A DNA stretch of 64,000 nt from Candidatus Woesearchaeota archaeon (GTDB lineage Archaea; Nanobdellota; Nanobdellia; SCGC-AAA011-G17; PNOQ01). The stretch is from positions 92,684-156,683 of the forward strand of contig CAYYUK010000001.1 in NCBI GenBank assembly GCA_964474895.1. The letters run 5' to 3'. This document shows positions 15,245 to 58,231 of this stretch, piece after piece. Each line of letters opens with the position of its first letter. Position 1 is the first letter of the stretch. Below the pieces are notes generated by a model that ran no database searches, was not told the DNA's origin, and worked only from the letters and a program-made list of their open reading frames with translations. A program made the position numbers and the translations under genes.

Positions 15245-16006
15245 ATGGAGATAAATCTGAAAAAAACCCCTCAAAATGTTACTATTATCGAGGGCTTTCC
15301 CGGCTTTGGTTTGGTTGGTACTATATCTACAGAATATTTGCTAGATCACTTGGATGCTGAGAAAATTGGCTCTATTTGGTTTGATGGTATGAATCCCATC
15401 GTTGCAGTTCATGAAAAGAAAGTTGTTGAACCAATTGGAATATTTTATCATAAAAAGAAAAATTTGGTTATAATCCATGCACTTACAAACGTTTCTGGTG
15501 TTGAGTGGAAGTTAGCTAAAATTATGGATGACCTTGCTAAAAAATTGAAAGCTAAAGAATTTATAAGTTTAGAAGGTGTTGGTGCTCTTGGTAAGGGCGG
15601 TGCTTTAAATATGAATAAAAAATTTAGTCCAAAAGAGAGGGGTAATTTGGAAGCTGGCGGTCCCAAAACTTATTATTACAGTTCTAAAAAGAATTTAGCT
15701 TGGGAGAAAGCAGGGATACCTCCTTTAAATGAGGGTATGGTCATTGGTGTTACGGCCAGCATGCTGCTAAAATTAAAATCCTCTCCGATTTCTTGCATAT
15801 TTGTTGAAGCCCAGTCTGGATTGCCCGATAGTAGGGCGGCTGCAGAAATTATAAAAGTTTTAGATCTTTATCTTGGATTAAAAGTTGATTTTAAACCATT
15901 ACTTAAGAAAGCAGAGAATTTCGAAGGCAAAATTAAAGGTTTAATGAAAAATACTCAGAAAGTTATTAAAACCAAGGATAACAAAGAATTAAGTTATATG
16001 GGATAA
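15245..16006 (+). CDS. PAC2-family protein (PbaA/PbaB-like proteasome assembly chaperone)
   Basis: N-terminal IIEGFPGFGLVGTISTEYLLDHL signature of the archaeal PAC2 family. Ends ...SYMG. TATA-like gatatataaag at about -27. Confidence 0.6.
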   Translation: MEINLKKTPQNVTIIEGFPGFGLVGTISTEYLLDHLDAEKIGSIWFDGMNPIVAVHEKKVVEPIGIFYHKKKNLVIIHALTNVSGVEWKLAKIMDDLAKKLKAKEFISLEGVGALGKGGALNMNKKFSPKERGNLEAGGPKTYYYSSKKNLAWEKAGIPPLNEGMVIGVTASMLLKLKSSPISCIFVEAQSGLPDSRAAAEIIKVLDLYLGLKVDFKPLLKKAENFEGKIKGLMKNTQKVIKTKDNKELSYMG

Positions 16007-16229: not shown

Positions 16230-16425
16230 CTCCCCTATGTAGGATACTTACTCTTTGAAAGAAGTCATATATATACCTTTTGTTATATCCGTCGGTGATT
16301 ACAACTCTTAGTTTAAACTTTTAATTATTGATTAAATTATTTAGTTTATTATTATTTTACAAGTTTTAGTTATTGATTAGATAATTTAGGTTTCTTATCT
16401 TTTAGGTTTTGATTAAAAGTTTTGA

Positions 16426-17250
16426 TTATATGTCATCCAATACATTTTTTACTTTCTTCAATTGTTCTTTTGAAACATGTGTATAGATCTGTGTCGTCGA
16501 CAAATCAGAGTGCCCTAGTAGTTCTTGTATAATCCTTATATCTACGCCTTTATCTAAGTTATGTGTTGCAAAGCTGTGTCTTAGCTTGTGTGCAGTCACT
16601 TTCTTAGGGATTCCTGCTTTTTTTGAAATATTGCTTATGATTTTTTGTATGTTTCTTGTAGACAGATGCCCTTCATCCTTTCCTGGAAATAGATATTTTT
16701 CTTTTTCATCTAATGTTTGTATATGTTTTCTTAACTCTTCGCTTAGCTTCTCTGGAAAGAATATTGGTCTATCTTTTCCCCCTTTTCCTTCTCTAACCCA
16801 TGCTATGTTGTTTTTTATCTCAAGATCTGATATTTTTAGATTTACACATTCACTTACTCTGAGACCTGTTGCATATAATAATCTCATAATTAGCAGTGAT
16901 TTTTTTGAAGATGCTGCCTTGAATAGTTTTCTTATTTCTTCTTTTGTTAGAAAGACCGGAATCGATTTTGGGATTTTTGGTGTTTTGAAGGTTACTATGT
17001 TTTTTCCAATTACATTATCATAAAAGAACTTAATTGATGATTTTTTTATGGCTATTGATCTTGGACTTAGTTTTCTGTCTGAAATGAGTTCTGCAAAATA
17101 TAGTTTGAGGTCGTCCTCTTTATTTTCTATCGGGTCTCTTTTTGTTTTTTCTAGAAATAATCTTACATTTGCAAGATACGTGTCAACTGTCCTTTTGGAA
17201 AATCCTCTTAATTTCAACTCAACTTCTAGTTTTTTTAGGTAATTTTCCAC
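16426..17250 (-). CDS. xerA: Tyrosine recombinase, XerA/XerCD-like
   Basis: R..H.R.Y catalytic set with C-terminal HKLRHSFAT...LGHSDLSTTQIYTHV. The 274-aa size is typical of archaeal XerA. Confidence 0.88.
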   Translation of the reverse strand: MENYLKKLEVELKLRGFSKRTVDTYLANVRLFLEKTKRDPIENKEDDLKLYFAELISDRKLSPRSIAIKKSSIKFFYDNVIGKNIVTFKTPKIPKSIPVFLTKEEIRKLFKAASSKKSLLIMRLLYATGLRVSECVNLKISDLEIKNNIAWVREGKGGKDRPIFFPEKLSEELRKHIQTLDEKEKYLFPGKDEGHLSTRNIQKIISNISKKAGIPKKVTAHKLRHSFATHNLDKGVDIRIIQELLGHSDLSTTQIYTHVSKEQLKKVKNVLDDI

Positions 17251-18182: not shown

Positions 18183-18776
18183 ATGGGTTTTTTATTTTTT
18201 GGAAAAAAGAGGAATGATATTAACAAGAAGTTCTCCGATTTGCACACTAGCCTTACTGGTTCTTTTTCTAAAGTTAAAGAAGATATTACTTCTGCATATG
18301 AATTACTTGGAGATCTTAATAAACATAAAGAAATCCAAAAACAAACTCTTGACGGCATTGATTCTAGATTAAGTTATATTGAGGGTTTTATCGAGGAGTT
18401 TATTTCTGGACAGACAGCTGTCCAAACACGCTCTGTGTCTGAACAAACTCAAACAAACAGCCGTTCTAAACGGACGTCTGTCCATGTCCAAACAGAGATT
18501 TTAGCTGAATTGAGACGTTTGACACCCATGGAAAGGTCATTGGTTTGGGCATTATTAAACACCGATTTGAAACTCAGCTATACAGATTTGGCCAGGGTAT
18601 TGGGCAAAGATGAATCAACTGTGAGAGGACAAGTTAGTAATATAAGAAAAAAGACAGATGACCTGATAAGTGAGAGAAACGAAATTCATGGTCAAAAGAG
18701 ATTTTACATAGATGAGAGAGTAAAAAACAAGGTTTTGAGAGAATATAAGGTAAAAAATAAGAGAAATAGTAATTAG
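18183..18776 (+). CDS. Coiled-coil plus C-terminal LuxR/GerE- or HTH_10-type helix-turn-helix regulator
   Basis: LTPMERSLVWALLNTDLKLSYTDLARVLGKDESTVRGQVSNIRKK fits the sigma-70-region-4/LuxR HTH pattern. N-terminal coiled coil. Low-complexity linker. Confidence 0.5.
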   Translation: MGFLFFGKKRNDINKKFSDLHTSLTGSFSKVKEDITSAYELLGDLNKHKEIQKQTLDGIDSRLSYIEGFIEEFISGQTAVQTRSVSEQTQTNSRSKRTSVHVQTEILAELRRLTPMERSLVWALLNTDLKLSYTDLARVLGKDESTVRGQVSNIRKKTDDLISERNEIHGQKRFYIDERVKNKVLREYKVKNKRNSN

Positions 18777-18829
18777 TGAGTGTATTTTGTTTCTTTTTTA
18801 GTGTTTTTTACATGAAAAGTGAGTTTAAA

Positions 18830-19444
18830 TCATGAAAAAAGTTTTGTTTGAGAAGGATCTTTATGGTAATATAAGTTTGTGAGTCTTTCTTTTAAATTTA
18901 ACTCCCTGAAGTTTTGGGGTATTGTGAGAATAACCATCCTATTATTGACCTTTTGCTTTTCTAGAGGGAGTTCCTTTCGTATAATTGAGCTTGTATAGCT
19001 TCTTATGCATCCAGTAGAAAGCTTAAGTTTCGACGACAATTCTTCATATGTTACTCCCCTTCCAAGATCTTCTTCTAATTGGTATATCGTCAGAAATACC
19101 ATGAATTCTTGGTTGGTTATATCCCTAAATCTGTCTTCCATATTGCCCTTTATCTGTTTAATATCTATTGAATGGCTGTTGAATGAATGAATGTCTGTTG
19201 AATGAATGAATGAATGAACCCCTTCATTTCCGGTGGAACTTTTTGGGTTTTTGTGAGAGATTATTGTGTTTGGAAGCCCAGAACCCCTAAATTTGGGGGT
19301 TTCAGCCTTTTTTTGCTCTAATAATTCATCTAATTTTCCCAATATCTCTTTAAATTTGGTTTCTATTTCGGATATTCGGCTATTTATGTGTTCTATGTCC
19401 CTTTTTACTTCTGAGAAAGCAGATTTTATCCTTTGATTTACCAT
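18830..19444 (-). CDS. Coiled-coil plus C-terminal HTH regulator (paralogue-like of 18183..18776). The linker contains a coding (GAAT)n microsatellite.
   Basis: N-terminal coiled coil (DIEHINSRISEIETKFKEILGKLDEL). C-terminal HTH (VTYEELSSKLKLSTGCIRSYTSSIIRKEL). The linker encodes IHSFIHSTDIHSFNSHSIDIK from the GAATGAATG repeats. Confidence 0.5.
   Translation of the reverse strand: MVNQRIKSAFSEVKRDIEHINSRISEIETKFKEILGKLDELLEQKKAETPKFRGSGLPNTIISHKNPKSSTGNEGVHSFIHSTDIHSFNSHSIDIKQIKGNMEDRFRDITNQEFMVFLTIYQLEEDLGRGVTYEELSSKLKLSTGCIRSYTSSIIRKELPLEKQKVNNRMVILTIPQNFRELNLKERLTNLYYHKDPSQTKLFS
19166..19219. repeat. (TGAA/GAAT)n microsatellite with duplicated CTGTTGAATGAATGAATG unit. Further GTGAATGAATG copies lie at 19487-19539.
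   Basis: Direct read: ctattgaatggctgttgaatgaatgaatgtctgttgaatgaatgaatgaatgaacc. Confidence 0.6.
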
Positions 19445-19551
19445 TTTGGCACTTTAGGAACTGTTGGTAGATATATAACAATTATTGTGTGTGAATGAAT
19501 GTTTAGTATGTGTTTAGTGAATGAATGGTGAGTGAATAGTTGGGATATATT

Positions 19552-19827
19552 CTATGACTCTGAAAGATCTTTATATTGGTTGTATATCTTGTCATTTAGA
19601 ACCCATTTCTTTCTGGCCAAATAGGTTTTACCTTCGGTGTTTTTGTTTATTTCCTTGGCAAAGCCTTCTTGCTTTAATTCATTTAGAAGTCTTAATGTGA
19701 ACTCTTCATCCCTTATTGCCTCTTCTGCAATTTGTGAGGTATAATATGGAACTAGGTGGTTTTCATATAGAATTGATAGTATATGTTCTTTAATCTTTTG
19801 CAGTTTTTTATCGCTTATTTGGGGCAT
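19552..19827 (-). CDS. Small winged-helix-like protein
   Basis: ORF with ILSILYENHLVPYYTSQIAEEA...LNELKQEGFAKEI, consistent with a wH fold. Confidence 0.35.
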   Translation of the reverse strand: MPQISDKKLQKIKEHILSILYENHLVPYYTSQIAEEAIRDEEFTLRLLNELKQEGFAKEINKNTEGKTYLARKKWVLNDKIYNQYKDLSES

Positions 19828-19877: not shown

Positions 19878-20513
19878 TTATTTATGTCCATATATTGTAA
19901 ATCTTGTTGGCTCGCACATTATCATAATTAACGCATCTTCATTTCTCTCCTTTAGACCTTTTAGCATCTTTAGATCTTGTCTCGAAGCAATACATCTTTT
20001 GTAAGGGTGTGTGTGTAAAACTATTATTGTGCCTTCTGAGCAAGGCCTAAACGAAACATGACTATATGATTGTTCAATTATGTCTGGTTCGTAGATTTCA
20101 GATATGAAATAATCTTGGCTTTTTGTCCCTTTTAGACATACGCTTGTTTCCGCTTCTAAATTTTCTGAATATAGTTCTTTTAGTTGTGTGTAGGTGTCAT
20201 CTTCAAATATGATTAAAAATTTGTCAAGAGTTATTACATTTTCGATTATTTCTACAGATTCATATTTGCTCTCTAAAATTGAGTAAATTGGAAAACTCAC
20301 TAAAAAATAAGAGATTATTAATGCTAGTAGTAATGTGCCCGTAATTGCTATTAGAATCTTTTTCCATAGTGGATTTTCAAGCAATTCGTTTATCTCTTGC
20401 CCTTCTTGCATATTAGACATATTTCTTTCTCCGAATCGTAGCAATTTTCGCAAACGCTCTCTCCACAAAACTTGCAGATCTTCTTTGAGATCTGTTGTTT
20501 GCATATCCCACAA
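19878..20513 (-). CDS. Membrane-anchored JAB1/MPN/Mov34 (JAMM) metalloprotease
   Basis: E...HTHPYKRCIASRQD is exactly E-x(n)-H-x-H-x7-S-x2-D. One N-terminal TM helix (ILIAITGTLLLALIISYFLV). An alternative start is at ATG 20420. Confidence 0.6.
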   Translation of the reverse strand: MWDMQTTDLKEDLQVLWRERLRKLLRFGERNMSNMQEGQEINELLENPLWKKILIAITGTLLLALIISYFLVSFPIYSILESKYESVEIIENVITLDKFLIIFEDDTYTQLKELYSENLEAETSVCLKGTKSQDYFISEIYEPDIIEQSYSHVSFRPCSEGTIIVLHTHPYKRCIASRQDLKMLKGLKERNEDALIMIMCEPTRFTIYGHK

Positions 20514-20796
20514 GGCCTCATATGTTCCATAGTTTTTGCACTCTTTTCGTTTTCTTAACAGTTGTGTAATAACTTAAAAGTTTAATTTTTTAGTTAATTT
20601 TTTAGTGGTGCCCTTTTTTAAAATATAGTTGTAAAAAAAGGTGATTAAGTCTGCGAATGTATATAAATGATTTTTTAGATTAGTAAATTATAATGTACAC
20701 CGAACTTAAGATTAAGAAAATAATGGAAGAAGAAGGTTGTACATGGGAAGAAGCTTCTGAAAAGAATAGTGAAGCTGTAGAGGTTACTGATTTCTT

Positions 20797-21213
20797 TTAA
20801 TTTTTTGATTCTTCTGGTTTCATATATGGAAGTCTTATCTGCGGTGGTAAATTTACTTCTTGAGATAAATTTAGTCCTTTTATATTACACTTACCTAAAA
20901 TCGTATTGAATATTAGTGGTGCTATCTCTTTTGGGAGATTTTTTTCTTTTTTCCACGATTCTTGTATTTCTTTGATTTTCTTTGGATCTTCCATATAGAG
21001 CACGTGACCATTTAAAACAATCTTTCCAATTTGAGGTTCATAATCCACTAAATACTCAAAATCAAATTTTAGAACCTCTTCTGACTTTCCAAGTGACAAT
21101 TTATCTTGTTCTACATTTTTTATTGATAAATTATTCTTTATTTTCAAGTTTGCATTTACTTGATTAGTTTTTTCTGCATTTATTTTTTCAAGATTGAATC
21201 CAACAATAGGCAT
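20797..21213 (-). CDS. Hypothetical protein
   Basis: ORF only, 138 aa, no recognisable motif. Confidence 0.35.
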   Translation of the reverse strand: MPIVGFNLEKINAEKTNQVNANLKIKNNLSIKNVEQDKLSLGKSEEVLKFDFEYLVDYEPQIGKIVLNGHVLYMEDPKKIKEIQESWKKEKNLPKEIAPLIFNTILGKCNIKGLNLSQEVNLPPQIRLPYMKPEESKN

Positions 21214-23567: not shown

Positions 23568-23949
23568 ATCCTTGTATAGAGGTTTACACTATTTAAAATT
23601 ATATGTTGGGTCCCCTACCTTCTTTTCATGTGGAGTTGTATTAAATAACTTTTTTCTTGTGGAGATTTTTCTTTAGGTGTGTTTATTTTGATATTATTCG
23701 CTGTTTTTGTAATGGTTTTTTGCATTATTTATTGTTTTTATTTGTCGTTGCTGTTTTCTTGTTTTTAATATTTTGTTTATATGTTTTATTATTATATTAT
23801 ATGTTATATTATTATATTATATATTGAAATTTATAATTACTACAAAGTTCCACTTGAAAAAGAGGTTAAAGTTTCAAATAAATGTTTTCCATTGGAAATA
23901 TAGGTCTCTGTCTGATAATTCTTATATATGGTTGAGATAGTTTTGGTTT
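23568..23949. promoter_or_regulatory. Predicted replication origin (oriC): an AT-rich unwinding region plus ORB-like elements directly upstream of orc1/cdc6
   Basis: Mini-ORB-like dyad TTCCATTGGAAA at 23887-23898. Two direct repeats TTTTC(A/T)TGTGGAG at 23623-23637 and 23652-23666. Extreme AT tract with tandem ttattatattatat units at about 23700-23830. The adjacent gene order orc1-polD small-polD large is the classical archaeal origin context. Confidence 0.55.
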
Positions 23950-25296
23950 ATGGTAATTAAAAAGAGTGAGAAGAAAAAGAATAAAATTAAATTGATCGAA
24001 GACAAATCATTGAAAGATTATGTTAAAAATACATCTGAAGAAGGAATACACAAAATAGAAGAAGATTCAGGGGAAGACGATAAGAGTATTGCAACTGACG
24101 AAATAGATGGTTTCTTCGAGGATTTTTTAACCAAAGAATCAATATTTAAAGATAAACAAGTTTTGCAAGTTAGCTATACTCCAGATACAATACCACATAG
24201 GGAAAAGCAGATAAAAGAGATAGCATCAATTCTTGCACCCTCGCTGAGAAATGAAAAGCCTTCAAATATATTTTTATATGGTAAAACTGGTACTGGAAAG
24301 ACTCTATCTGTATTGCACGTTGTTAAGAAATTAAAGAATGTTGCGAAATTAAAGAAAGTTGAACTCAGTGTGTTTTATTTAAATTGTAAATTAAAGAGGG
24401 TTGCAGACACAGAGTATAGGCTTGTTGCAGCATTAGCAAGAGAATTTGGTGAAGATGTTCCATTTACAGGGCTACCTACTGATGAAATTTATCGTGTTTT
24501 TGTTAAATCGATAGATTCCAAAAGGAGGAATTTGATAATTGTTTTGGATGAGATAGATCAGCTGGTTAAGAAAATTGGAGATGAAATTTTGTATACTTTA
24601 ACAAGATTGAATTCAGAATTAAAACAGACAAAGATAACAATAGTGGGAATTTCTAATGATCTGCAGTTTGCAAATTATTTGGACCCAAGAGTAAAATCTT
24701 CTCTAACTGAAGAAGACATAAATTTTCCCTCATATAATGCATTACAACTACAAGATATACTTTCCCAAAGGGCAAATGAAGCATTCAACGAAAATGTTGT
24801 TTGTGAAGGAGTTATTAGTAAATGTGCTGCTTATGCAGCAAGAGAACACGGTGATGCAAGAAGGGCACTGGATTTGCTAAGGGTTGCCGGAGAGCTTACA
24901 GAAAGAGAAAATAATGAAAAATTAAGTATAAAATTTATTGATTCTGCAGAGGAAAAAATAGAAAGGGATTTGATTTATGATGCAATTAAAACGTTGCCAA
25001 AACAATCTCAAGTGGCATTACTTTCTATATTTGAATTGCATGTTAAGAGCACAGAGAAAGTTTTGACAGGGGAGGTTTATGAAAAATATAGGTCTCTTTG
25101 TTCTTCTTGTGGATTAAAAATGTTGACACAAAGAAGACTTTCAGATCTTATTTCAGAACTTGATTTGTTGGGGATAATTAATGCGAGAGTAATTAGTAAG
25201 GGCAGATATGGTCGTACAAGAGAAATAAAGTTGGCAGTTCCTGTAACAAATGTCAATATACTATCAAAGGAGCTAAAAACGTGGTTGGGAATTTAA
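23950..25296 (+). CDS. orc1: Orc1/Cdc6 replication initiator
   Basis: Walker A LYGKTGTGKT. Walker B VLDEID. C-terminal winged helix. TATA-like ttcttatatatgg at about -27. Confidence 0.92.
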   Translation: MVIKKSEKKKNKIKLIEDKSLKDYVKNTSEEGIHKIEEDSGEDDKSIATDEIDGFFEDFLTKESIFKDKQVLQVSYTPDTIPHREKQIKEIASILAPSLRNEKPSNIFLYGKTGTGKTLSVLHVVKKLKNVAKLKKVELSVFYLNCKLKRVADTEYRLVAALAREFGEDVPFTGLPTDEIYRVFVKSIDSKRRNLIIVLDEIDQLVKKIGDEILYTLTRLNSELKQTKITIVGISNDLQFANYLDPRVKSSLTEEDINFPSYNALQLQDILSQRANEAFNENVVCEGVISKCAAYAAREHGDARRALDLLRVAGELTERENNEKLSIKFIDSAEEKIERDLIYDAIKTLPKQSQVALLSIFELHVKSTEKVLTGEVYEKYRSLCSSCGLKMLTQRRLSDLISELDLLGIINARVISKGRYGRTREIKLAVPVTNVNILSKELKTWLGI

Positions 25297-26912
25297 CCAA
25301 TAAAATATCTTTTTTCTTGAAAAGGGGATATTTGCTTAATCCAGATATATTAAAAGTTATAGACGAAAGTCTTTTTGAAAGACTTGGAGGACAATTTGAA
25401 TCAGGAGATAAACCTGTTGTGTTGACCAAGGATATAAAAAAGATTTTAGAGAAGAAGGGATTTAAATTTAATGCAAATTGGAACGATTTCGAAAAGGCAA
25501 GGGTTGATTATGAAAAAGGGGAAGATAGTGAAGTTTATCTTACTTTTTTAGAAGTTTCAGATCATAACTTACCAAACGTGGTTGGGGAAGACAATATCCA
25601 AGAAAGAGAAGAAAATGTAGTTACAGAAGAAACTTCTGAAAATGGAGCATCAATGCCTATTGTTTTGAAAAATTATTGCGACAAGGGGGCAAAAGTAGAT
25701 GTTTCCTCTTTTGTTGCTTATTATAAAATTCGTTACAATTATCTGAGAAAAGTATTACAAACGAGAAATGGATTATCAGGGGTGCTCTCTATAAACAGGT
25801 TAGGAAACAAAAGGAAAGGCGAGAAAATATCTACAATGGGTATTGTGTATTCTAAAGAAACTACAAAAAATGGTCATGTTGTTTTGGAATTAGAAGATGT
25901 AACTGGAATGGTGAAGGTTTTAATTATGAAAACAAAAGATGATTTGTATAATGATGGAATTGACGTTGTTTGTGATGAAGTAATTGGTATAACTGGTGTT
26001 GTTGGAGATAAAATTATTTTTGCAGATAAAATATTTTTCCCAGAATTCCCAAAGAGTAATAATATTAAGAAGGGGGGGGTTGAAGAATATGCCGCATTTA
26101 TATCTGATGTTCATGTCGGGTCTGATGTTTTTTTGGAAGACAATTTTTTGAAATTCATAAATTGGATGAATGGCAATTATGGAAATAAAGAACAGAGGGA
26201 AAAAGGATCTAAAGTGAAATATCTATTTGTTGTTGGCGATCTTGTAGATGGTGTTGGGGTGTATCCTGGGCAAGAATCAAATTTGAAAATAAATGACATA
26301 ACAGCACAGTATAACCGATTAGCAGAATTATTTTCAATGATAAGAAAAGACATACAGATTATTGCTTGCCCAGGAGACCACGATGCATTAAGATTAGCAG
26401 AACCACAGCCTTATTTGGATAAATCAATTGCGGAATCTGTGTGGAATTTGGGCAATGTTACCCTTGTTACAAATCCTTCCTTGGTTAATGTTGGAGCCAC
26501 AAAAAACTTTGGGGGGTTTAATGTTTTGTTGTATCATGGACGTAGTTTTAGTTATTTTATAGATGTTTTGGATTCCGTTAGAGAGGCTGGGGGGTATGAT
26601 GGAATAGATTATCTTTTGAAATTATTACTAAAAAAGAGACACTTGGCACCAAGCCATGAATCAACGTTGACAGTTATCGATAAGGAAGAAGATGCAATGT
26701 TAATAGAAGAGGTTCCTGATTTTTTTGCAGTTGGGCATATCCATAGGTGTAAAGTCGAACAACATGGCGTGACAACTTTAATCTCTGGTAGTTGTTGGCA
26801 ACCCCTTACAGACTATCAAGAAAAGTTAGGGCATAATCCCGAACCTGCAAGAGTTCCAATAGTGAATTTGGAATCAAGGGAAGTTAGTGTTATGAAATTT
26901 ATAGATGATTAA
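25281..26912 (+). CDS. polD1: DNA polymerase II (PolD) small subunit DP1
   Basis: Calcineurin-like phosphoesterase motifs (DVHVG, GDLVDGVG, GDHD, VGHIH). Overlaps orc1 by 16 nt. Confidence 0.9.
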   Translation: MVGNLTNKISFFLKRGYLLNPDILKVIDESLFERLGGQFESGDKPVVLTKDIKKILEKKGFKFNANWNDFEKARVDYEKGEDSEVYLTFLEVSDHNLPNVVGEDNIQEREENVVTEETSENGASMPIVLKNYCDKGAKVDVSSFVAYYKIRYNYLRKVLQTRNGLSGVLSINRLGNKRKGEKISTMGIVYSKETTKNGHVVLELEDVTGMVKVLIMKTKDDLYNDGIDVVCDEVIGITGVVGDKIIFADKIFFPEFPKSNNIKKGGVEEYAAFISDVHVGSDVFLEDNFLKFINWMNGNYGNKEQREKGSKVKYLFVVGDLVDGVGVYPGQESNLKINDITAQYNRLAELFSMIRKDIQIIACPGDHDALRLAEPQPYLDKSIAESVWNLGNVTLVTNPSLVNVGATKNFGGFNVLLYHGRSFSYFIDVLDSVREAGGYDGIDYLLKLLLKKRHLAPSHESTLTVIDKEEDAMLIEEVPDFFAVGHIHRCKVEQHGVTTLISGSCWQPLTDYQEKLGHNPEPARVPIVNLESREVSVMKFIDD

Positions 26913-29900
26913 AATGGTTTTTAGTTTAGAGAAATATAATGAAGGATTAAATGAGAATGTAGATAAAGCATATTCTCTTGCAAAACTTGCCAAAGCAAAG
27001 GCATATGATCCCTTGGATATTGTTGAGATTCCTCTTGCCAAGAATATGGCAGAGAGAGTAGAGAGGTTGACCGGTGTGGCTGCTCCTCAAATAGTTGGAA
27101 AGGGAATACCGGATAGGATAGGGGAATTAGAAAAAAAATATGGAAAATTGGATTGGAGGGTTGCATTATCAATCGCCCATGAAGTAACACAAGAGAAATT
27201 CTGTAAATTTGAAAATAAAAAAGAGGCAATTGAAATTGGAATTAGGGTTGGGTTTGCATATGTTACTGTCGGTGTCGTTGCAAGTCCTCTTGAAGGATTT
27301 ACAGGAATAGATATTAGAAAAAGAAGGGACGGAAAGGAATATATTGCATTGTTATATTCAGGTCCTGTAAGAAGCGCAGGGGGAACTGCAGCATCTGTTT
27401 CTGTTTTAATTGCAGATTATATTCGGAAAAAGATGGGATATAGTGTATACGATGCTGATGAAAACGAAGCGAAGCGAGCAATAACTGAGCTAACAGATTA
27501 TCATGAGAGAATTACAAATTTGCAGTACTTTCCTTATCCTGAAGAGATAGAGTATCTGATTTTAAATCTTCCAGTACAAATAGACGGAGATCCAACCGAA
27601 AAGTTAGAAGTTTCAAATTATAAAGGGTTGGACAGGATTGCTACAAATAAGCTAAGGGGTGGGTTTTGTTTAGTTATAGGGGAATGTTTGGCTCAAAAAG
27701 CGAAAAAAGTTTTAAAGCAATTAGACTCATGGGGTGGCGATTTTGATTTGGGAGACTGGAATTTTATGGGTAAATTTTGCAAACTACAAACTAGGCTGAA
27801 GGCAAAACAGAAAGAGGATATAGTTGCAGAAAAAAAAGAAAAGGTTTCTCCAGATTATACTTTTATAAAAGATATAGTTGCAGGTAGACCCGTTTTAACA
27901 CACCCCTTATGCAAGGGAGGGTTTAGATTAAGATACGGTAGAACAAGAACAACAGGATTAAGTGCAACAGCAATACACCCTTTGACTATGAAAATTTTAA
28001 TGGATTATATTGCTATTGGAACACAATTGAAAGTTGAACGACCTGGCAAGAGTACTGTTCTTAGTTCGTGTGATTATTTGGAAGGACCCATAGTTAAACT
28101 GGTAAATGGAGATGTCGTTTTTTTAACTGAAGAAAATTATGATTTGGTGATTTCTAAAATATCTGAAATACTTTTTTTAGGGGACATTTTGATTCCATAT
28201 GGGGATTTTTTGAATAGGGCACATACACTAGTCCCCCCTGGATATTGTGAGGAATGGTGGTTAAAACATTTGCAAGCAAAAGGAAAATTTCCAGAGGATA
28301 TTTCAGAGATTACGGGTTTAGACATATTTCAAATTAAGAAACTTTTTGCAGATCCAATAAAAACAGTAATTTCTGCAGGGGATGCATACATTCTTTCTAA
28401 GATGGCAAAAGTACCTTTACACCCAAGATATACATACCATTGGAAAGATATTGATGTCAAAGAACTTCTTGTTTTATTAGGGTGGCTTGTTAAATCTACC
28501 ATAAAAAAGGGGGATCAATTTAAAATTATTTTTCCAATTGATTACGGGTCTGATGTTGTCGAACCAAAAATTATATTGGAAAAACTTGGAATCCCTCATA
28601 GAGTTGTTTCAAAAGAGTACATTGTTGTAGAAAATGAGTGGGCGATAGGACTTATGGCAAATCTTGGAATATATAGCAAAGATATCGACATTAAAGAATT
28701 AATAAAGAAAATAAATTCCAGTAAAGATGCTTTAGCTAACATAAACCTTTTTTCAGAAGTGGAAATAAAAGATAAATCTGGTTTGTCAATTGGTGCAAGA
28801 ATGGGCAGGCCAGAAAAAGCAAAGATGAGAAAACTAAAAGGCAGTCCACACGTTCTCTTTCCAGTTGGTTCCGAAGGTGGCAGACTTAGAAGTTTTAATG
28901 CTGCAATGGATAATGGAAAGATAAGATCGGAGTTCCCGATTTTTTTGTGTGAATCTTGCAATAGCGAAACAGTATATCCTTTTTGTGAGAAATGTGGTGC
29001 TAAAACAAGTAGACAATATTATTGTCCCAAATGCAAAAGAACAATGGGTACCAAAGACTGCCCACAACACGAGAAAAATAATCATTATTCCTATAGGGAC
29101 ATAGACGTAAACCATTATTGTAAAATTGCCAAAGAAAAGTTAGGCTTAACTGGGTTTCCTGATTTGGTTAAGGGAGTGAGGGGGGTTTCCAACGAAGAGA
29201 GAGCTATGGAGAATCTAACTAAAGGAATCCTTAGATCAATACATGGAGTAACAGTTAACAAAGATGGAACTGTTCGTTATGACATGACTGAAATGCCACT
29301 AACACATTTCAAACCTGTAGAAATTGGCACATCGGTAGACAAATTAATAAAATTAGGATATACTGAAGATATACATGGAGAAACTCTTGTAGATATTAAT
29401 CAAATTATACAGTTAATGCCCCAAGATGTTATTTTGCCTTCCTGTGAAGAGTCTTCAGAAGAAGGAGGGGATGCAATATTATTCAGGGTTGCTGGTTTTG
29501 TTGATGATCTTCTTCAATATTTTTATGGTTTGGAAAGATTTTATAATTTTAAATCTAAGGAAGACTTGGTTGGTCATCTAATAATAAGTCTTGCTCCACA
29601 TACGTCAGCAGGCGTAGTTGGAAGAGTGATTGGTTTTTCTAAAACACAGGGTTGTTATGCTAGCCCAATATGGCATTCTGCTCAAAGAAGAGATTGTGAT
29701 GGGGATGAAAATGGCATAATGCTGCTAATGGATGGGCTGTTGAATTTTTCTAGAAAATATTTATCAAGTCATAGGGGTGCGACACAAGATGCCCCCCTTG
29801 TATTAACCACGAATCTTATTTTAACAGAAGTTGATGATATGGTATTTGATGTTGATTGTTCATCCGAATATCCTCTCGAATTTTATAATGCATGTGAAGA

Positions 29901-30438
29901 GTATAAGATGCCTTGGGGAGTAAAGATTGAATCCATTGGGGATCATTTGGAAGAAGATGATTTTAAAATAGGATATACTCATGAAGTTAGTAATCTGAAT
30001 TCCGGTGTTAGATATAGTGCATACAAGAAGATACCGACAATGGCAGAGAAAGTAATTGGTCAAATGAAATTGGCAGAGATGATAAGGGCTGTTGACGAAA
30101 ATGATGTTGCGCGTTTAGTTATTGAAAGACATTTCATTAGAGACATTAAAGGAAATCTTAGGAAATTTAGCATGCAGCAGTTTAGGTGTGTAAATTGTAA
30201 TGAAAAATATAGAAGGCCCCCCTTGATTGGAAAGTGTCGCAAGTGTGGTGGAAAATTATTGTTTACTATATCTGAAGGTTCGGTAACAAAATATTTAACA
30301 CCTTCTTTGAATTTGGCTGAGAAGTATAAAGTTCCCACTTATACTTATCAGACTCTTGATTTAACCAGGAGAAGGATAGAAAGTGTTTTTGGAAAAGAAG
30401 CGGATAGACAAGAAGGATTGGGTCGTTGGTTTGGTTAA
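26905..30438 (+). CDS. polD2: DNA polymerase II (PolD) large subunit DP2
   Basis: 1177 aa. Cys clusters (CESCNSE...CEKCG, CVNCN...CRKCGG). Catalytic region CDGDENGIMLLMDG. Overlaps DP1 by 8 nt. Confidence 0.9.
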   Translation: MIKMVFSLEKYNEGLNENVDKAYSLAKLAKAKAYDPLDIVEIPLAKNMAERVERLTGVAAPQIVGKGIPDRIGELEKKYGKLDWRVALSIAHEVTQEKFCKFENKKEAIEIGIRVGFAYVTVGVVASPLEGFTGIDIRKRRDGKEYIALLYSGPVRSAGGTAASVSVLIADYIRKKMGYSVYDADENEAKRAITELTDYHERITNLQYFPYPEEIEYLILNLPVQIDGDPTEKLEVSNYKGLDRIATNKLRGGFCLVIGECLAQKAKKVLKQLDSWGGDFDLGDWNFMGKFCKLQTRLKAKQKEDIVAEKKEKVSPDYTFIKDIVAGRPVLTHPLCKGGFRLRYGRTRTTGLSATAIHPLTMKILMDYIAIGTQLKVERPGKSTVLSSCDYLEGPIVKLVNGDVVFLTEENYDLVISKISEILFLGDILIPYGDFLNRAHTLVPPGYCEEWWLKHLQAKGKFPEDISEITGLDIFQIKKLFADPIKTVISAGDAYILSKMAKVPLHPRYTYHWKDIDVKELLVLLGWLVKSTIKKGDQFKIIFPIDYGSDVVEPKIILEKLGIPHRVVSKEYIVVENEWAIGLMANLGIYSKDIDIKELIKKINSSKDALANINLFSEVEIKDKSGLSIGARMGRPEKAKMRKLKGSPHVLFPVGSEGGRLRSFNAAMDNGKIRSEFPIFLCESCNSETVYPFCEKCGAKTSRQYYCPKCKRTMGTKDCPQHEKNNHYSYRDIDVNHYCKIAKEKLGLTGFPDLVKGVRGVSNEERAMENLTKGILRSIHGVTVNKDGTVRYDMTEMPLTHFKPVEIGTSVDKLIKLGYTEDIHGETLVDINQIIQLMPQDVILPSCEESSEEGGDAILFRVAGFVDDLLQYFYGLERFYNFKSKEDLVGHLIISLAPHTSAGVVGRVIGFSKTQGCYASPIWHSAQRRDCDGDENGIMLLMDGLLNFSRKYLSSHRGATQDAPLVLTTNLILTEVDDMVFDVDCSSEYPLEFYNACEEYKMPWGVKIESIGDHLEEDDFKIGYTHEVSNLNSGVRYSAYKKIPTMAEKVIGQMKLAEMIRAVDENDVARLVIERHFIRDIKGNLRKFSMQQFRCVNCNEKYRRPPLIGKCRKCGGKLLFTISEGSVTKYLTPSLNLAEKYKVPTYTYQTLDLTRRRIESVFGKEADRQEGLGRWFG

Positions 30439-57046: not shown

Positions 57047-58231
57047 TTGGCAGAATATGAAGAAAGAGAATTGGCAGAATATGAAGAAAGAGAATTTTCT
57101 TTAAGAACTGGGCTTGGTTGGGTCGTGAAGGTTTTTATAGTTCTTGTGTTAGTTGGGGGTATTTTTATTGGGGCGGTTTTTGCATGGAATTTTGTCAGTT
57201 CTGGTTTAGCCGGTTCTGCTTATGAAAAATTGTCTGTTGGAATTCAGGAACAAACTCCTACTAATCCTTTTTTGAAAGCTTGGCATTATATAACTAATCC
57301 CGCGGATCTCAATACCTATGATTCTGTTGTTGAAGTTAATGAGGAAAATGAAGATTTGGGCGTTAAAATTACTGACCTTGAAAGTACAAAACCCTTTTTC
57401 TTTGAAGATGAAGGCATTGTTGTTAGGGGGATGGTTGAAGCTGCAGCTATCACTGGAGGGGGTTCTATTGTTTCTTTGGATTGTATGATCAGAGGGTATG
57501 AGAACGAAGCAACTGTTGATCCTACCGAAATTGAAGTTATTGGTAATGGGATTGTTCAACATGAAAATGTTCTTTGTTCTTTTGAGCCTGGAAATAATAT
57601 AGATAGTGATGTTGGAATAAGGAGGATTGAATTAGGTGCCACATCCGAACTTTATACAATAGCTACTTATGATGTCTTTGTGATTAAAGATGAAGAATAT
57701 AATCGTATTAAGTATGAATTAGGATTGGATCCTTTTATTGAAATTTTGGGTGGAAAGCCAGATTTGCTTGGTCCAGGAAATATAATGAGATCGAGAACAA
57801 TTCCAAGTCCTATGAAATTAAGTATTTCTACTCAGACAGAGCAGCCATTTAAATCTGAAGATAGCATTTTTTTATTAGTTAGTTTGGATGAAATCTGGGA
57901 AAATGGAGAGTGGCTAAGAATTGATAGTTTAAAGATCACTGTTCCAAGCACCATAATTGAACCAAGAGATGATCCTAACAGTTGTGATTTTGTGTTTACT
58001 GGTGAATACGATGGGGAGTATAAAATTTATGAGGTTTCTGAAGAAGTTTTGAGTAGAATAAACAGTGTTGGTGAGTCTGGCGAATATAGTGTTGTTTTTC
58101 AATGTGCCATGGATGTAGGATCTCTTTTGTCTGATGAAGATATCTTTCAGAGCTCCATTATTGCGGAAGCGAGCTATGTTTACAAAGTAGAAAAGGCTAC
58201 TACTGTAGATATCAGGAAGAGTAGTGTTTAG
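57047..58231 (+). CDS. Signal-anchored acidic surface protein. TTG start. The N-terminus carries a 24-bp tandem duplication (AEYEEREL x2).
   Basis: No in-frame ATG upstream of the TM helix. GGGGTG SD-like sequence 8 nt upstream of TTG 57047. TM is VVKVFIVLVLVGGIFIGAVFAW. Confidence 0.45.
   Translation: MAEYEERELAEYEEREFSLRTGLGWVVKVFIVLVLVGGIFIGAVFAWNFVSSGLAGSAYEKLSVGIQEQTPTNPFLKAWHYITNPADLNTYDSVVEVNEENEDLGVKITDLESTKPFFFEDEGIVVRGMVEAAAITGGGSIVSLDCMIRGYENEATVDPTEIEVIGNGIVQHENVLCSFEPGNNIDSDVGIRRIELGATSELYTIATYDVFVIKDEEYNRIKYELGLDPFIEILGGKPDLLGPGNIMRSRTIPSPMKLSISTQTEQPFKSEDSIFLLVSLDEIWENGEWLRIDSLKITVPSTIIEPRDDPNSCDFVFTGEYDGEYKIYEVSEEVLSRINSVGESGEYSVVFQCAMDVGSLLSDEDIFQSSIIAEASYVYKVEKATTVDIRKSSV
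57049..57096. repeat. Perfect 24-bp tandem duplication (ggcagaatatgaagaaagagaatt x2) at the 5' end of a surface-protein gene
   Basis: Direct read of positions 57049-57072 and 57073-57096. Confidence 0.85.

Follow-up and report, generated by a model that had tools for sequence, protein, structure and literature searches.

In bacteriophage lambda the ori-lambda iterons lie in the linker-coding region of the O gene, and among lambdoid phages iterons and DNA-binding domain covary. The lambda O iterons have been described (PMC3017604), as has, in Pyrococcus, a cluster of origin recognition boxes (ORBs) that lies inside the dp1 coding sequence and is bound by Cdc6 in vivo (PMC1904270). In Haloarcula hispanica, an off-origin ORB cluster was proposed to regulate oriC2 negatively through Cdc6 titration (PMC4010727). 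Here we analyse 64,000 nucleotides (the window) of contig CAYYUK010000001.1 from a Candidatus Woesearchaeota archaeon (assembly GCA_964474895.1, positions 92,684 to 156,683 of the forward strand), and describe a gene, here called FAM (18830-19444, minus strand), whose linker-coding part holds one ORB followed by repeated words that recur in the gene's own promoter. Since these organisms have not been cultured, there is to our knowledge almost no work on how DPANN archaea control replication.

The FAM box resembles the Pyrococcus ORBs in its TTCCA-nn-GGAAAT-GAA core followed by a G-run, in having counterparts upstream of cdc6, in lying a few kilobases from oriC and in standing inside coding sequence. 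It differs in being a single near-perfect box at a fixed place in the linker of one gene family across an archaeal lineage, and in being a predicted site that is translated in two frames and followed by lineage-specific words. Like the H. hispanica cluster, it would be an initiator site near but outside an origin with a proposed regulatory role, under a titration model analogous to E. coli datA; unlike that cluster, it comprises one box that is embedded in a gene and paired with candidate sites for a second, locally encoded DNA-binding protein. With lambda O the locus shares putative binding repeats in the linker-coding part of the binder's own gene, and repeats and apparent specificity that co-vary among relatives. 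However, it has no AT-rich unwinding element by the repeats, its DNA-binding domain is C-terminal, and its element includes the box of the host initiator, promoter duplicates of the repeats and a chromosomal context. In the literature we came across neither this arrangement nor any ORB within the gene of a DPANN winged-helix protein. The components are of known kinds, and what is new is their fixed combination in one family across a lineage, together with the covariation of promoter and linker.

The box itself is GTTCCACCGGAAATGAAGGGGT (19218-19239, minus strand), and the window contains no other full match; it is translated S-S-T-G-N-E-G-V and, on the coding strand, stands immediately 5' of the repeat tract. 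Its consensus across the family is (A)AAGTTCCA-NN-GGAAAT-RAR-GGGGTC at the DNA level, and the peptide S-[ST]-x-G-N-x-G-V is common to homologues. The window box has the GTTCCAnnGGAAATGAA core in common with P. furiosus ORB1, whose reverse complement, derived by hand, is GGTTCCAGTGGAAATGAAACTCTGGGGGG (PMC1904270); the box of locus L022, GTTCCAGTGGAAATGAAGGGGTC, and the core of that reverse complement, GTTCCAGTGGAAATGAA, are identical over 17 nt. A matrix built solely from intragenic boxes found its next-best matches in the intergenic DNA upstream of cdc6 in all four genomes checked (window position 23885, plus strand; L080 position 6487, minus; L081 position 6411, plus; L082 positions 8533, plus, and 8125, minus). 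We conclude that the intragenic box is a canonical archaeal ORB, a predicted site for Orc1/Cdc6.

Conservation of this box follows the DNA. It occurs in 55 of 61 distinct open reading frames (ORFs) of the family, read in frame 0 in 51 and in frame 2 in four; the frame-2 box, found in two lineages, is read V-P-Q-E-[EM]-K-G-S (exact box in L039, a variant in L051, L053 and L058). Four of the six ORFs that do not have it (L035, L041, L061 and L078) are apparently cut at the N terminus, to judge by ORF length and position, and L049 has a one-mismatch variant. TTCCA..GGAAAT is identical in 43/43 sites, and the two centre bases are free, giving T, I, S or K. Within the box, serine is encoded by TCC in 42/42 cases against a background of 0.09 (binomial P = 3.9e-10, nine lineage representatives) and glycine by GGG in 38/42 against 0.23. 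The same box in two frames, with frozen third positions, indicates that DNA rather than peptide is conserved.

Directly 3' of the box on the coding strand lies an array of words, (CATT)4-CAACAG-A-(CATT)3-CAACAG-C-CATTCAATAG (19166-19217, minus strand), which encodes HSFIHSTDIHSFNSHSID and is identical in 22 loci; the coding strand of the tract reads V-H-S-F-I-H-S-T-D-I-H-S-F-N-S-H-S. The GAAT tract to which the earlier note drew attention is this series of (CATT)n words seen from the plus strand, where CTGTTGAATGAATGAATG stands at 19176-19193 and again at 19195-19212, the latter copy being continued to (GAAT)4. The run is interrupted, with three then four units on the plus strand and four then three on the coding strand, and Tandem Repeats Finder reports period 4 at 19180-19218 and period 19 at 19169-19212. 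That note also placed copies of the word upstream of a TATA box, and these sequence facts are confirmed: GAATGAATG has eight matches in the 64 kb where 1.02 are expected (0/100 shuffles reach eight), seven of them within 19181-19527, and eight of the nine window matches to ATTCAYTCA are at the FAM locus. In the promoter (19487-19539, minus strand) there are three ATTCAYTCAC copies with two CTAAACA words interleaved; GTGAATGAATG occurs at 19491-19501 and 19517-19527, and a degenerate GTGAGTGAATAG at 19528-19539. These copies are nearly invariant across three lineages while the flanking coding DNA diverges. They lie directly upstream of a TATA-like box, TTATATAT (19471-19478, minus strand), which ends 26 nt 5' of the ATG at 19444 and is conserved in the DNA alignment of orthologues, and the FAM mRNA is likely leaderless. 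An Rfam scan of the whole window gave two tRNAs only, so a known RNA does not explain the conservation; sigma-70 promoter and terminator scans, irrelevant to an archaeon, were at chance level.

Two further observations concern the DNA around the words. YTAAACAC is a second promoter word, present in the FAM promoters of the window, L018, L019, L027, L051, L054 and L059 whatever the lineage-specific word, and it has an AAACA core in common with GTCCAAACA, the word of the convergent partner gene p197, a hint that the partner protein may take part in cross-regulation. Additionally, an imperfect palindrome, AAACCCCCAAATTTAGGGGTTC (19281-19302, minus strand), lies in the FAM coding sequence about 45 nt 5' of the ORB and encodes E-T-P-K-F-R-G-S; its conservation in sister lineages is partial.

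The words that follow the ORB differ from lineage to lineage. The window clade has CATT, L021-L023 and L030-L032 have CAAT(CAAT)CATTCAACA, L027 and its relatives CACT, L054-L057 AAAC, L062 and L063 ACAACAAACAA, and L051 and L047 ATAC and CACATCCTA; the word is the 11-nt CATCGTTATRA in L070, L073 and L074, and the 13-nt AACATCCTAATAA in L075. In almost every homologue, the words recur within 150 nt 5' of the start of the same gene. Exact matches between promoter and linker reach 29 nt, and those of 21-29 nt are made up of wholly different words in different lineages. Promoter and linker of the same gene have a median of 10.5 8-mers in common, against 1-2 for non-own pairs, and the own promoter shares on average 1.0 and 3.1 8-mers with its own N- and C-terminal coding DNA and 1.3 with the reverse complement. 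Among 11 lineage representatives, the observed sum of promoter-linker sharing was reached in 0/10,000 permutations. The suggestion that the promoter word is an operator of these regulators thus gains comparative support, as linker and promoter words change together in 46 homologues.

Linker peptides of period four occur elsewhere in the family. At the DNA level, (AAAC)n is read as KQTN in L054-L057 and (ATAC)n as IHTY in L051; HARTHART and QASKQASK linkers (among P0187, P0190, P0205 and P0184), seen as peptides only, would fit (CACG)n and (CAAG)n. All period-four units, confirmed or inferred, contain a CA step.

The word also goes with the recognition helix of the encoded protein. FAM proteins with the helix GCIRSY have TCA[TC]TCA words, those with GCIRGY have TCAATCA, SCIRGYIKRL goes with AAACAAAC, and FSLRN with TCGTTAT. 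Partner p197 (18183-18776, plus strand; 197 aa), which is convergent with FAM, has an array of its own in the linker-coding part, with GTCCAAACA at 18420-18428 and 18486-18494 and degenerate CAAACA words between (18420-18494, plus strand). Its RGQ-type helices go with GTYCAAAC words in 9/9 cases and its RRH-type helices with CGTTCAA words in 19/20, and the CGTTCAA words are read in all three frames. From these correspondences, the p197 array appears to be a counterpart of the FAM array, fitted to the recognition helix of p197 itself. Across the window, GTCCAAACA with one mismatch is at chance level. The pairs of word and recognition helix offer a natural series for studying the co-evolution of binding site and specificity, with the site inside the binder's gene.

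The earlier note described both convergent genes as a coiled coil, a linker and a C-terminal helix-turn-helix (HTH), and AlphaFold2 and hhalign agree with this architecture. For FAM (204 aa), the AlphaFold2 model has a helix at residues 2-47, disorder at 49-92, a helix at 95-107 and a winged helix at 111-174 (helices 133-140 and 144-156, strands 162-165 and 171-174); the p197 model is helical at 6-77, disordered at 78-105 and folded as a winged helix at 115-175. Comparison of the two family profiles with hhalign shows homology in the HTH (probability 95.9%, E 5.8e-9), and p197, whose pairing with FAM is kept in most loci, is a distant FAM paralogue; BLASTP of one protein against the other gave no significant match, and the paralogy is seen with profiles only. 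The best Foldseek matches of the FAM model are MarR, MepR and HsmR (probability 1.0, E ~2e-3), and the FAM HTH is, by its modelled fold, a MarR-like winged helix. The label LuxR/HTH_10-like did not hold, as neither the GerE nor the HTH_10 Pfam model matched at E<=1.

Other searches returned little. The Pfam MarR model gave no match above the gathering score, and FAM has sub-threshold matches to HTH_11, DnaD_N and HTH_36 only. Sub-threshold matches of the two window proteins were to Sigma70_r4, HTH_11, WHD and DnaD_N; p197 has one to Sigma70_r4_2 (E 0.0032) and carries the JGI automatic name 'CsgD family'. A search of PDB sequences with the family profile reached E 0.04 at best, in coiled-coil noise. 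Autoregulated MarR-type repressors share with FAM the winged-helix fold found by Foldseek, as well as candidate operator words that lie at the core promoter or directly 5' of it. However, a long coiled coil at the N terminus and a linker that is disordered take the place of the MarR dimerisation helices in FAM, and its words are direct repeats rather than palindromes and have an additional intragenic array.

FAM lies beside a replication origin, as far as the window sequence predicts one. At 23610-23904, inverted ORB-like boxes (minus strand at about 23610-23635 and at 23650-23666; plus strand at 23848-23865 and 23887-23904) surround an AT-rich repeat block with tandem AT repeats at 23776-23839, within intergenic DNA that extends from 23.56 to 23.95 kb. 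Near 24 kb, both the strand of the genes and the GC skew switch, and the boxes are followed on the plus strand by genes assigned with Pfam to orc1/cdc6 (23950-25296) and the small (25281-26912) and large (26905-30438) subunits of DNA polymerase D (PolD). From sequence, pattern and the matrix match at 23885, we conclude that 23.6-23.9 kb is the predicted chromosomal oriC. The FAM box is 4.4 kb from it, and FAM lies 2-4.5 kb from a divergent cdc6-polD operon both in the window and at the loci of homologues of 32-40% identity (L080, L081 and L082, where the distance to the cdc6-DP1-DP2 operon is 2-4 kb). FAM words were sought in the oriC of four genomes, where only trivial AT-rich 8-mers were in common. 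The earlier note mentioned neither this origin nor the box beside the tract.

The family is large and its surroundings are stable. We found 69 homologues, and 841 representative clusters at 50% identity (E<=1e-3); the named sources are metagenome-assembled genomes of Woesearchaeota and Nanoarchaeota. Synteny extends family-wide over ArgRS, a 138-aa gene, in some cases a 211-aa gene, a 91-aa gene, FAM and the convergent p197.

Taken together, we consider it probable, with some reserve, that the locus holds a composite cis-element, an ORB plus operator or iteron words for FAM with copies in the gene's own promoter, through which FAM would regulate itself beside Orc1/Cdc6. The element sits in the disordered, linker-coding part of the gene, a part that tolerates almost any peptide. 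FAM, oligomerised through its N-terminal coiled coil, would bind the words with its winged helix both at the promoter and inside its own gene, and would control its own expression, perhaps through a loop of the ~300 bp that separate these two places. With an Orc1/Cdc6 molecule on the adjacent box, the two proteins may assemble into a nucleoprotein complex close to the origin, at 4.4 kb from oriC. Such a complex could couple expression of the regulator to occupancy by the initiator, or could modulate initiator availability as proposed for the haloarchaeal off-origin ORB clusters. The locus offers concrete predictions for work in vitro, with two proteins and ~450 bp of DNA: a complex of initiator and accessory factor by oriC.

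A wider proposal, which we put forward tentatively, is that Woesearchaeales and other Nanobdellota may possess an origin-proximal module in which Orc1/Cdc6 and two lineage-specific coiled-coil winged-helix proteins assemble on the linker-coding DNA of the latter. Words and helices would co-evolve, and in these reduced genomes the module might control initiation, by titration, hand-off or a cryptic second start, or the segregation of origins.

Several observations weigh against a composite element bound by FAM and Orc1/Cdc6. We infer the pairing of protein and site, and the regulatory outcome, from sequence, and the source organisms are all uncultured. The correspondence of word and recognition helix is confounded by phylogeny, and the words could be bound instead by p197 or by the neighbouring 91-aa protein, whose gene (19552-19827, minus strand) is conserved in synteny directly upstream of the FAM promoter. 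Promoter-linker sharing was not seen in L065, L066, L071 and L052, and p197 words are rare in p197's own promoter; they are few or missing there and in the FAM promoter and linker, except in L067, L071 and L082. The near-exact matches of 26-29 nt could stem from gene conversion rather than selection, and the spacings of the words (11, 19 and 26 nt) do not fit neatly with helical turns. The FAM gene has only one ORB, and the degenerate ORB pattern used for the oriC boxes was designed after the sites had been seen.

Among the alternatives, we regard as unlikely a second, gene-embedded replicator of the ori-lambda kind, in which replication would start inside the gene, with the words as iterons of the initiator-like protein that it encodes and the ORB as the place where Orc1/Cdc6 and MCM are recruited. 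The ORB does adjoin direct repeats in the linker-coding part of a gene for a DNA-binding protein, the repeats covary with the DNA-binding domain as they do in lambdoid phages, and there are weak similarities to DnaD_N in 12/26 and to HTH_36 in 3/26 FAM members. However, the intragenic element has just one ORB, forms no inverted pair and lies next to no AT-rich unwinding element. The features of a canonical oriC (inverted boxes, AT-rich block, strand and skew switch) are found at 23.6-23.9 kb. The gene is chromosomal and syntenic across the family, and its context bears no plasmid or virus mark.

Rather improbable, too, is a centromere-like partition site at which the two proteins would be centromere-binding, in the manner of ParR on parC or of ParB on a parS within its own gene, and would mark the origin region for segregation. 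Direct-repeat arrays that lie near an origin, both within and 5' of the genes of small DNA-binding proteins that oligomerise, would suit such a role, as would the array periods of 11-13 nt in L070, L074, L075 and L062. However, the neighbours examined include no NTPase of the ParA, SegA or ParM type, and partition leaves the ORB unexplained.

That the repeats are a functionless by-product of slippage, template switching or gene conversion between promoter and linker seems to us very unlikely. Near-exact promoter-linker matches of 21-29 nt are what such exchange would leave, and the recombinant or chimeric junction of one allele, P0102, falls exactly at the conserved block. However, the arrangement is found again, with different words, in at least 11 deep lineages, and both copies are more conserved between species than the DNA that flanks them. 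We give equally little credence to a feature of the protein alone, in which S-T-G-N-E-G-V and the His/Ser-rich, low-complexity linker would be selected as peptides and their likeness to DNA sites would be incidental. The frame-0 box peptide is indeed kept in 116 of 145 family representatives, and the frame-2 peptide is found in five. Against this, the second frame preserves the DNA in an unrelated peptide, third positions of the box are invariant while the centre positions that change the amino acid vary, the p197 words stand in three frames, the linker is predicted to be disordered, and the untranslated promoter has the same words. A seeming peptide motif in a family of at least 841 representative clusters is a translated DNA element, which matters for annotation and modelling.

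The earlier note had proposed slipped-strand phase variation, in which gain or loss of a GAAT unit shifts the frame and toggles the regulator on or off. Like the contingency loci of Haemophilus and Neisseria, FAM has a tetranucleotide repeat in its reading frame, and over long distances the number of words does vary (L038 and L040 against the window clade, also among L054-L057). However, the tract is just 4+3 units split by CAACAGA and not a long uninterrupted simple sequence; the tetranucleotide tracts that are experimentally phase-variable in Haemophilus and Neisseria are much longer. Strains did not differ in repeat number: the tract is identical in the 22 fetched loci, which represent four lineages with proteins 58-100% identical, and no length variants exist in the 90% clusters of the 204-aa protein, P0001 and P0002. 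Exact copies of the 204-aa protein occur on 18-35 contigs or blocks; for P0001 the figure is 12-19 contigs and for P0002 it is 5-10. In the DNA alignment with the loci of 86%- and 82%-identical orthologues, tract and promoter copies are the most conserved parts and have the same copy number. Among residues 68-94, 12 of 14 amino-acid-invariant columns use a single codon, compared with 20 of 82 elsewhere (Fisher p = 2e-5; five lineages); such frozen synonymous sites argue against a hypermutable tract, which would show the opposite. The 61 distinct homologous ORFs include no frameshifted allele, and the sole truncated one, P0102, has an unchanged tract and a C-to-A nonsense change just after it. 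A short, interrupted tract that does not vary between strains and whose synonymous sites are under purifying selection can hardly be credited as a phase-variation switch. More generally, a tetranucleotide run in coding sequence is not in itself a contingency locus, and the tract of FAM is instead unusually constrained.

The P0102 allele is split in two assemblies (L083 1501-2115 and L084 393-977). The C-to-A change creates TAA and leaves a 91-aa N-terminal product; a second ORF follows the stop, of 103 aa in L083 and of 94 aa in L084, where it is cut by the contig end. On the 3' side of the tract, the allele matches the sister lineage (P0001) and so is either recombinant or an assembly chimera, joined at the conserved block of ORB and repeats. 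Two other mechanisms were set aside. An inversion or deletion switch driven by the nearby XerC-like recombinase (16426-17250) does not fit, as we saw no rearranged alleles and the repeats have the same orientation, and a template/variable repeat pair of the diversity-generating retroelement type was dismissed because the repeats are only 10-29 nt.

The genes next to FAM show some features of their own. The 91-aa gene, which lies just upstream of the FAM promoter words and encodes a possible alternative binder, and the 138-aa gene (20797-21213, minus strand) adjoin FAM throughout the family at 40-88% identity and have no Pfam match. Between them, a 211-aa ORF (19878-20513, minus strand), called as 180 aa in sister lineages, has weak C-terminal JAB/RadC-like matches (E ~0.1). 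A Cys-rich, zinc-ribbon-like ORF of 46 aa (20390-20530) begins inside the N-terminal end of the 211-aa ORF in another frame.

Elsewhere in the window, two copies of a 45-nt AT-rich tandem repeat (16308-16398) lie between a PAC2-family gene (15245-16006) and the gene for the XerC/D-like tyrosine recombinase (16426-17250). A perfect 24-nt tandem duplication, TTGGCAGAATATGAAGAAAGAGAA, is present in 2.1 copies at 57047-57096, at the start of the ORF at 57047-58231.

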